DNA from: Naegleria gruberi
Taxonomy: Eukaryota
Strand: one strand, 5' to 3'
Assembly: GCA_000004985.1 (NCBI GenBank)
Contig: GG739612.1
DNA length: 1,022 nucleotides
Part shown: positions 264 to 1,022 of the stretch, piece by piece
Numbering within the stretch: the first letter of the stretch is position 1
Layout of the letters: each line of letters begins with the position of its first letter
Notes under the pieces: generated by a model
What the model was told of the DNA's origin: nothing
Database searches by the model: none
What the model saw: only the letters and a program-made list of their open reading frames with translations
Position numbers and translations under genes: made by a program

Positions 264-305
264 GCATCATAAACATTTTGTCATTCTTCACTCCACAACA
301 AACAG

Positions 306-313
306 AATAAATA
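306..313 (+). promoter_or_regulatory. A/T-rich TATA-like element (AATAAATA) at -36 to -29 relative to the U2 start
   Basis: This is the only A/T block at the position expected for a TATA element of a snRNA promoter in lineages where snRNA genes carry TATA boxes (plants and many protists). It could equally be chance in AT-rich DNA. No convincing PSE/USE could be called; CACTCCACAAC at 289-299 (-53 to -43) is only loosely USE-like. Confidence 0.3.
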
Positions 314-341
314 CTCTGTTCATTATGTAATTCTGAAAACC

Positions 342-529
342 ATCTTTCTCGGCCAATTGGCTTTGATCGAGTGTAGAATCTGTTCTTTTCAGTTTAATTG
401 CTGAAAGCAGCCCACGGGTTGCAATTACTATTAACTCAATTTTTTGTAGGGATCAGGGTTTGAGCTTAATTGCTCACTTTGGTTTGGTTTCAATCAGACC
501 TTGCACAAACAGTCAGATTAGGAGCCACC
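342..529 (+). ncRNA. U2: U2 spliceosomal snRNA gene, ~188 nt; the 3' end is approximate.
   Basis: Direct comparison with the canonical U2 5' domain recalled from memory (AUCGCUUCUCGGCCUUUUGGCUAAGAUCAAGUGUAGUAUCUGUUCUUAUCAGUUUAAUAUCUGAUA). The window reads ATCTTTCTCGGCCAATTGGCTTTGATCGAGTGTAGAATCTGTTCTTTTCAGTTTAATTGCTGAAA at 342-407, roughly 55 of 66 positions identical. Stem-loop I is GGCC-AATT-GGCU at 351-362. Stem-loop IIa is UUCAG...CUGAA at 389-406. Stem-loop IIb is GCAGCC-CACG-GGUUGC at 407-422. The Sm site AAUUUUUUG lies at 438-446 and is followed by GUAGGGAUCAGGG (human: GGAGCAGGGAG). Stem-loop III is UGAGC-UUAAUU-GCUCA at 461-476. A stem-loop IV-like CAGACC-UUGCACAAACA-GUCAG region at 495-516 carries a UUGCA loop similar to the U2B'' binding motif AUUGCAGUACC. 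The terminal GGAGCCACC at 521-529 resembles the human 3' end GGUGCACCC. The length matches human U2 (187 nt). Confidence 0.85.
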
Positions 530-674
530 TAACTCTTTAAGTTAATTGAAAATCATTGCTCAAAGCTATAATCAGACCAAGATTGAGATGTGGAACAGAT
601 TTCTCTCCCAAAGGAATTATTTGATTGTCTGAAGGTGAATTGTGGAAAATTCAATAAGCAGTCTTAAATAACGA

Positions 675-681
675 TATATAA
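675..681 (+). promoter_or_regulatory. TATA-like element (TATATAA) at -29 to -23 relative to the 5S start
   Basis: TATATAA sits about 23 bp upstream of G704. Upstream TATA-like elements at about -25 to -30 are known for 5S genes in several eukaryotes, for example Arabidopsis, Neurospora and Drosophila. AT-rich context raises the chance-occurrence rate. Confidence 0.4.
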
Positions 682-703
682 ACTTTAATTTAAAGAAATG
701 AAT

Positions 704-823
704 GGCTACGGCCATATCACGATGAATGCACCTCATCCCGTCCGATTTGAGAAGTTAAGCATCGTCGAGCCACATCAGTACTGAGGTTGGAGACAACTTG
801 GGAACCTGTGGTGCTGTAGTCTT
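704..823 (+). rRNA. 5S: 5S ribosomal RNA gene (~120 nt)
   Basis: GGCTACGGCCATATCACGATGAATGCACCTCATCCCGTCCGATTTGAGAAGTTAAGCATCGTCGAGCC...GTACTGAGGTTGGAGACAACTTGGGAACCTGTGGTGCTGTAGTCTT matches the universal 5S architecture. The 5' GGCUACGGC (704-712) pairs with the 3' GCUGUAGUC (813-821) to form helix I: 9 bp with two G-U wobbles, the same pattern as in human 5S. A box-A-like GAAGTTAAGC lies at about +48 and a box-C-like GGTTGGAGACAAC at about +80. The CCCGTCCGAT and GTGCTGTAG blocks are conserved. The length is about 120 nt. Confidence 0.92.
751..797 (+). promoter_or_regulatory. 5S internal control region: box A-like (751-765), intermediate element and box C-like (782-797); candidate TFIIIA/TFIIIC recognition region.
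   Basis: By position and sequence it is analogous to the Xenopus 5S ICR (+50 to +97). GAAGTTAAGCATCGTC lies at +48 to +62 and TGAGGTTGGAGACAAC at +79 to +94. Functional assignment rests on established knowledge of 5S genes and is not demonstrable from sequence alone. Confidence 0.45.
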
Positions 824-826
824 TTT
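822..826 (+). terminator. RNA polymerase III oligo-T terminator (T5) at the 5S 3' end
   Basis: A TTTTT run immediately follows the helix-I 3' strand (GCTGTAGTC-TTTTT-ACC). This is the canonical Pol III termination signal. Confidence 0.65.
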
Positions 827-943: not shown

Positions 944-1022
944 TTAGAAACACTTTCTATGAACGATGGCACATCCAGCATCTTCATACTCCTCTGCTGT
1001 GATCCACATAGATGAAAGGTGA
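944..1022 (-). CDS. Possible C-terminal end of a minus-strand protein-coding gene running in from beyond the window edge. The peptide is ...HLSSMWITAEEYEDAGCAIVHRKCF and the stop codon is TAA at 946-944.
   Basis: A 25-codon open frame reaches the window edge and has a mixed, non-low-complexity amino-acid composition. The other two minus frames contain stops. On the minus strand an AATAAA hexamer (complement of 843-848) lies about 100 nt downstream of the stop. This is very short and could be chance; there is no homology I can recognise. Confidence 0.15.
   Translation of the reverse strand, partial: HLSSMWITAEEYEDAGCAIVHRKCF

Follow-up and report, generated by a model that had tools for sequence, protein, structure and literature searches.

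Does a U2 spliceosomal snRNA gene lying just upstream of a 5S rRNA gene, on the same strand, belong to a unit that was amplified in tandem, or are the two independent neighbors? The question is raised by a stretch of 1022 nt, here called the window, in which a preliminary description had pointed to linked U2 and 5S genes of the same orientation. Both strands of the window were searched with cmscan against all Rfam 15 families, taking the curated gathering scores as thresholds. The linkage was borne out, as both genes are full length and co-oriented, with E-values far beyond chance. The U2 model (RF00004) matched positions 340-533 of the plus strand over its whole length (model positions 1-192 of 192); its 110 bits exceed the gathering score of 46 (E = 4e-23). 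The 5S model (RF00001) matched positions 704-822 of the same strand with 105.4 bits against 38 (E = 7e-24), again from end to end (model positions 1-120 of 120). The span of 306-826 assigned earlier to the pair corresponds to the distance from the TATA-like box of U2 to the T-run that terminates the 5S gene, and the spacing, claimed to be about 175 bp, was measured as 170 nt. Coordinates are collected in Table 1.

Table 1. Features of the window and of the metagenome U2 genes compared with it.
Feature	Position	Strand	Remarks
TCCACAA, candidate upstream/proximal sequence element of U2	292..298	+	-50 to -44 from A342; seen in the sequence
Putative TATA-like box AATAAATA	306..313	+	-36 to -29, counted from the inferred U2 5' end at 342
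U2 spliceosomal snRNA gene, full length	342..533	+	cmscan match 340-533, RF00004
Branch-point recognition hexamer GTAGAA, not GTAGTA	373..378	+	aligned to Rfam consensus AGUGUAGUAUCUGUUCUU; A377 replaces T
U2 Sm site AATTTTTTG (RNA AAUUUUUUG)	438..446	+	aligned to consensus AUUUUUG; between stem-loops IIb and III
Spacer between U2 and 5S	534..703	+	170 nt, AT-rich, 28% G+C; no Rfam family at E <= 1
TATA box TATATAAA upstream of 5S	675..682	+	-29 to -22; read from the sequence
5S ribosomal RNA gene, full length	704..822	+	RF00001
T5 run, Pol III terminator of 5S	822..826	+	starts on the gene's final base
TCCACA copies	292-297, 589-594, 641-646, 1003-1008	+, -, -, +	motif count; the two minus-strand copies belong to repeat family D4
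Actin, last 25 codons and TAA (HLSSMWITAEEYEDAGCAIVHRKCF, then stop)	944..1021	-	converges on 5S; gene continues beyond the window
Metagenome U2 genes carrying GUAGAA	L001:5623-5816, L003:6799-6992, L004:11034-11227, L002:716-908, L005:11957-12149

The upstream gene has the score, full-model coverage, five stem-loops, Sm site and helix I residues of RF00004, and it lacks the GUAGUA hexamer. We file the locus as a U2 gene, with a variant sequence at a functional site, despite its GUAGAA because membership rests on model score and architecture. The mature 5' end is most likely at A342 (ATCTTTCTCGGCC...), in line with the earlier assumption. Of the 45 pairs in the family model, 42 are standard, the exceptions being one deleted pair, a U-U mismatch in the lower stem of stem-loop I and an A-A mismatch in stem-loop IV. 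Stem-loops I, IIa, IIb, III and IV are all seen in the centroid fold of the isolated RNA (z = -2.8). The sole internal T6 run of the gene (440-445) falls within the Sm site. Among the residues of U2/U6 helix I, GCUUUGAUC at 360-368 retains GCU and GAUC and differs in the bulged bases alone (UU for AA), and alignment to the Rfam consensus places an intact UUGCAC loop on stem-loop IV. The sequence of the 3' half is far from the consensus and from plant-type U2 genes, and its helices are nonetheless kept, which points to compensatory change under structural selection and not to decay. Judged from the sequence, this U2 copy looks functional.

A 17-nt family of TTSAGYTTAATTGCTSA-like sequences has three copies in this region (388-404, 460-476 and 546-562). 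The first two form the hairpins of stem-loops IIa and III in U2. The third is weaker, with 76% identity to the reference copy, and is located 13 nt beyond the 3' end of U2. A 3'-end formation signal would be expected at about this place, and the copy may be due to chance.

The downstream gene combines the score of a 5S rRNA with the three-helix junction and the gene anatomy of a Pol III unit. All 34 pairs of the 5S family model are standard, and the minimum-free-energy fold of the isolated RNA takes the three-helix-junction shape (-41.5 kcal/mol, z = -2.6 against shuffles). Published 5S genes of several animals and fungi have a TATA-like box near -28 and a T-stretch downstream, with TATA-like motifs near -28 in bivalves, Bombyx, Neurospora and Drosophila (PMC6204057). 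The T5 run at the 3' end of the present gene is meaningful because such runs are scarce in the window. Runs of at least five T are depleted for DNA this rich in AT, with 4 overlapping matches against 11.4 expected and none on the minus strand, and they are confined to 118-122, the U2 Sm site and the 5S terminator. The 5S gene is probably an ordinary Pol III gene and, going by these features, an active one. The 5S loop CCCGUCCGAU and U2 stem IIa (UUUCAG/CUGAAA) may have a fungal or amoebozoan look.

Full-length matches of this kind also bear on whether the two RNAs are genes at all. SINEs with 5S-derived and snRNA-derived heads are described (PMC4494074), and one or both RNAs could in principle be heads of such retroposons. 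This is very hard to reconcile with the locus, since both matches span the entire model, the 5S sequence is preceded by a TATA box and followed at once by a terminator, and neither RNA runs on into a tail or an A-rich end or is flanked by direct repeats. We regard a retroposon origin as extremely improbable.

Two sequences upstream of the U2 gene, the TATA-like box and TCCACAA, are placed as its promoter elements might be. In the window the TCCACA core was counted 4 times, where 0.6 would be expected, and 1 of 200 shuffles reached this count. TCCACAA resembles the core of the snRNA promoter element DUSE, [AT]CCCA[AT]AA (PMC3188802), of which two-C forms exist (PMC7919456), and also the TCCCACAT element upstream of four plant-type U2 genes from metagenomes (L001-L004; see below). 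The TCCACA copies may act as snRNA-type promoter elements, bearing in mind that the motif was chosen after inspection of the sequence. The two inverted copies in the spacer fall within the two members of a 12-nt direct repeat (584-595 and 636-647); the one at 641-646 lies about 60 nt upstream of the 5S start. The fourth copy is within the actin coding sequence.

T runs also suggest a division of labor between polymerases. The T6 run of the U2 Sm site would halt any polymerase for which T5 is a terminator, which makes Pol III improbable for U2 and Pol II the most likely enzyme. The T5 end of 5S and the internal T6 of U2 are in this way consistent with the earlier assignment of the snRNA to Pol II and of 5S to Pol III.

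Taken together, we picture the window as gene-dense, AT-rich eukaryotic nuclear DNA in which two independent small-RNA genes would stand head to tail. U2 would be expressed by RNA polymerase II from a TCCACAA-type element and a TATA-like box. The 5S gene, 170 nt downstream, would be expressed by RNA polymerase III through an internal control region aided by the TATA box at -29, and transcription would end at the T5 run. On the opposite strand, the stop codon of an actin gene lies 121 nt past the 5S terminator. The spacer between the two RNA genes would have to hold any 3'-end signal of U2 and the upstream region of 5S, in addition to its two inverted TCCACA motifs.

Composition follows this layout. 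Overall G+C content is 34%, with 28-32% in the non-genic stretches, 41% in the U2 gene and 51% in the 5S gene. The preliminary description held that a cluster interpretation would be weakened if the region were single-copy and without neighboring small-RNA genes. Besides U2 and 5S, no small-RNA gene was found in the window by cmscan with Rfam 15 on both strands, nor was any tRNA gene. A third RNA, SNORA43, was considered and dismissed as noise (17.5 bits against a threshold of 80; cmscan, Rfam 15). Positions 1-339 contain neither a tRNA nor an ORF exceeding 30 codons, and an Rfam scan of positions 1-345 at E up to 10 gave chance-level matches only. Five spurious ORFs (30-39 aa) had no entry in the records consulted. 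The U2 and 5S strings of the window did not turn up in exact-pattern scans of contigs from viruses, from prokaryotic genomes and from JGI metagenomes.

The coding tail downstream of 5S is short and is that of an actin. In a phmmer search against the PDB, its residues 4-25 align to the last 22 residues of actins, with 8ccn Actin-2 as the best match (E = 5e-7) and dozens more PDB actins at about 1e-5. The Pfam Actin model is matched at its very end (positions 387-410 of 410, E = 3e-5), a score under the whole-protein cut-off as only 25 residues are present. The C-terminus ends at the terminal KCF of the family, with TAA directly after. From TAA following the conserved C-terminal F we infer that this triplet is a stop codon in the organism, which argues against ciliates in which TAA encodes glutamine. 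AATAAA at 842-847 on the minus strand was considered as the actin poly(A) signal and is not claimed, since the hexamer occurs at chance frequency (4 against 2.5 expected).

Use of the doubled actin tail as a protein-search query gave no candidates. A chimeric query that joined a conserved stretch of actin to the 25-aa tail of the window returned 120 actin fragments. The tail, which ends in SSMWITAEEYEDAGCAIVHRKCF before the stop, is divergent, being identical to these fragments at no more than 18 of its 25 residues, the value of the best one. Two of the 120 fragments were traced, and both came from contigs roughly 1 kb long, with the actin gene at the contig end.

How do these surroundings bear on amplification? 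One possibility is a co-amplified tandem U2-5S array of the oyster and sole kind, with actin at its edge, of which the window would hold the last unit or a single long one. Such an array would agree with the literature, where tandem arrays are the typical setting of 5S-snRNA linkage (PMC3464664, PMC6204057), with the common orientation of U2 and 5S, which is that of array units, and with the spacer-like character of positions 1-339, which hold neither a long ORF nor an Rfam family; what the array requires and the window does not offer is repetition. No part of a U2-5S unit recurs within the 1022 nt, where the longest direct repeats are 11-18 nt, and positions 1-339 have no similarity to the sequence 3' of the 5S gene. 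In addition, a protein gene of single-copy type lies 121 nt from 5S. We consider it improbable that the window belongs to such an array.

Several earlier statements can be weighed on the same evidence. That one copy of each gene lies in the window is correct. That 5S-snRNA linkage is known elsewhere is documented (PMC3464664, PMC6204057). That it is usually tandemly repeated and implies co-amplification finds no backing here, with nothing repeated and actin 121 nt away. Two options had been left, a repeat unit exceeding 0.9 kb or a dispersed pair. As actin ends so close to 5S, any repeat unit would have to contain the actin gene, unlike the 5S-snRNA arrays of Crassostrea, Solea and Asellus (PMC3464664, PMC6204057), and the dispersed pair is the option that fits better.

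We therefore favor, with reasonable though not strong confidence, a dispersed or at most locally clustered neighborhood of U2 and 5S over membership in a short, homogeneous array of tandem units. Both genes would then be of low copy number. Intergenic gaps as short as 170 and 121 nt suggest a gene-dense genome, in which independent neighboring transcription units are normal. Five unrelated metagenome U2 loci (L001-L005) have no 5S in their flanks, so the adjacency is no general property of U2 genes. Against a dispersed pair it can be said that two specific small-RNA genes within 170 nt of each other are improbable by pure chance in most genomes, and some non-random clustering or co-duplication is therefore possible. 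The pair may also be duplicated elsewhere as a block, or an array may reach upstream of position 1.

The remaining peculiarity of the locus is the branch-point recognition hexamer of its U2. GUAGUA is near-universal in U2 RNAs, and GUAGAA matches it at 5 of 6 bases, the change being equivalent to U37 to A in human numbering. In the standard pairing scheme, the partner of the U2 base at the position of A377 is the second nucleotide of a UACUAAC-type branch site. No paper joining GUAGAA with U2 snRNA came up when a library of publications was searched in full text. When the branchpoint-interacting stem-loop region is folded in isolation, GUAGAA and GUAGUA give 0 and -1.5 kcal/mol, both marginal.

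A single scan of 241 million metagenome records, with a U2 string carrying GUAGAA as query, returned five loci (L001-L005). Their U2 genes are all full length and plant-type, score 150-168 bits, and represent two lineages set apart by compensatory changes in stem-loop IIb. Each of them has a plant-type TCCCACAT or ATCCCATAG element near -70 and a TATA near -30. The presence of GUAGAA in promoter-bearing U2 genes of two other lineages hints that the hexamer recurs in nature. The same contigs also encode F-box and DEAD-box proteins.

It could be argued that the U2 copy of the window is non-functional or a minor variant, either a disabled paralogue or a specialized form, so that a working 5S gene would be clustered with a U2 relic. 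This is also an objection to the explanation we favor, as a U2 with GUAGAA could be a minor variant or could have been disabled not long ago. The unusual hexamer would then be one sign of decay, the mismatches in stem-loops I and IV another, and the score of 110 bits, below the 150-168 bits of the other U2 genes compared, a third. However, the gene is full length and keeps 42 of 45 pairs despite its diverged 3' half, as expected from compensatory change; its Sm site, the GCU and GAUC of helix I and the UUGCAC loop are intact, and candidate promoter elements lie upstream. Moreover, since GUAGAA is also found in intact U2 genes of two other lineages that have plant-type promoters, the change alone is no mark of decay. 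We think it unlikely that this U2 is a relic or a minor variant.

Equally doubtful in our opinion, and put forward tentatively, is the proposal that GUAGAA is the working branch-point recognition sequence of the organism's main U2 and not the defect of a single copy. If it were true, base-pairing logic says that introns would favor UUCUAAC-like branch sites, with U at the second position of the UACUAAC type, and the RNA-RNA contact that is conserved most strongly in splicing would have been retuned naturally throughout a lineage. If GUAGAA were the only U2 type of the organism, it would provide a natural test of how far the branch-site helix constrains the sequence of U2. A working branch-site reader of this kind would be of moderate interest for splicing specialists.

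Compared with the canonical U2 of RF00004, the gene is alike in length, its five stem-loops, the Sm site, the U2/U6 helix I residues and the loop of stem-loop IV, and unlike it in having GUAGAA in place of GUAGUA. This one-base change in the branch-point site is the sole unusual detail of the locus.

The closest precedent for the linkage is that of the oysters Crassostrea gigas and C. angulata, with linked tandem units of 5S rDNA and U2 (Cross and Rebordinos 2005, cited in PMC3464664 and PMC6204057). As in Crassostrea, U2 and 5S share one short DNA stretch, and a Pol II-type small-RNA gene is linked to a Pol III-type one. Unlike it, the window has no visible repetition, actin adjoins the pair and the genome is AT-rich and gene-dense; the oyster units form large tandem arrays. 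The same papers (PMC3464664, PMC6204057) cite 5S rDNA linked to U1, U2 and U5 in Solea senegalensis and a 5S-U1 linkage in the isopod Asellus aquaticus. These cases resemble ours in that 5S and a spliceosomal snRNA share a unit, and they indicate that such linkages arise repeatedly in evolution. They differ in that their units comprise several or different snRNA genes and are tandemly repeated, and U2 and 5S occur once each here. Measured against a tandem 5S-snRNA unit, the window has the short shared stretch (170 nt, same strand) and, because of actin, is not made up of small-RNA genes only.

A different comparison, meant as a lead, is offered by Dictyostelium, in whose compact genome closely paired snRNA genes have an upstream DUSE (PMC7919456, PMC3188802), a CCA-rich element that accompanies genes of the Pol II as well as the Pol III class. 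As there, the small-RNA genes of the window are intergenic and a few hundred bases apart, with a short CCA-rich element 45-65 nt upstream. The likeness is limited, since TCCACAA at -50 is merely similar to the DUSE [AT]CCCA[AT]AA at about -63, and the Dictyostelium pairs consist of related snRNA genes and not of U2 with 5S. The intergenic DNA of D. discoideum is also more AT-rich than the non-coding DNA of the window (28% G+C). U2-5S linkage is thus already a known kind, of value mainly as a marker, and the present locus is one more example of a repeatedly evolving arrangement. In this aspect, what it would add to the oyster, fish and isopod cases is that the linkage is not confined to amplified arrays and can also take the form of a simple neighborhood next to an ordinary protein gene of a compact genome.
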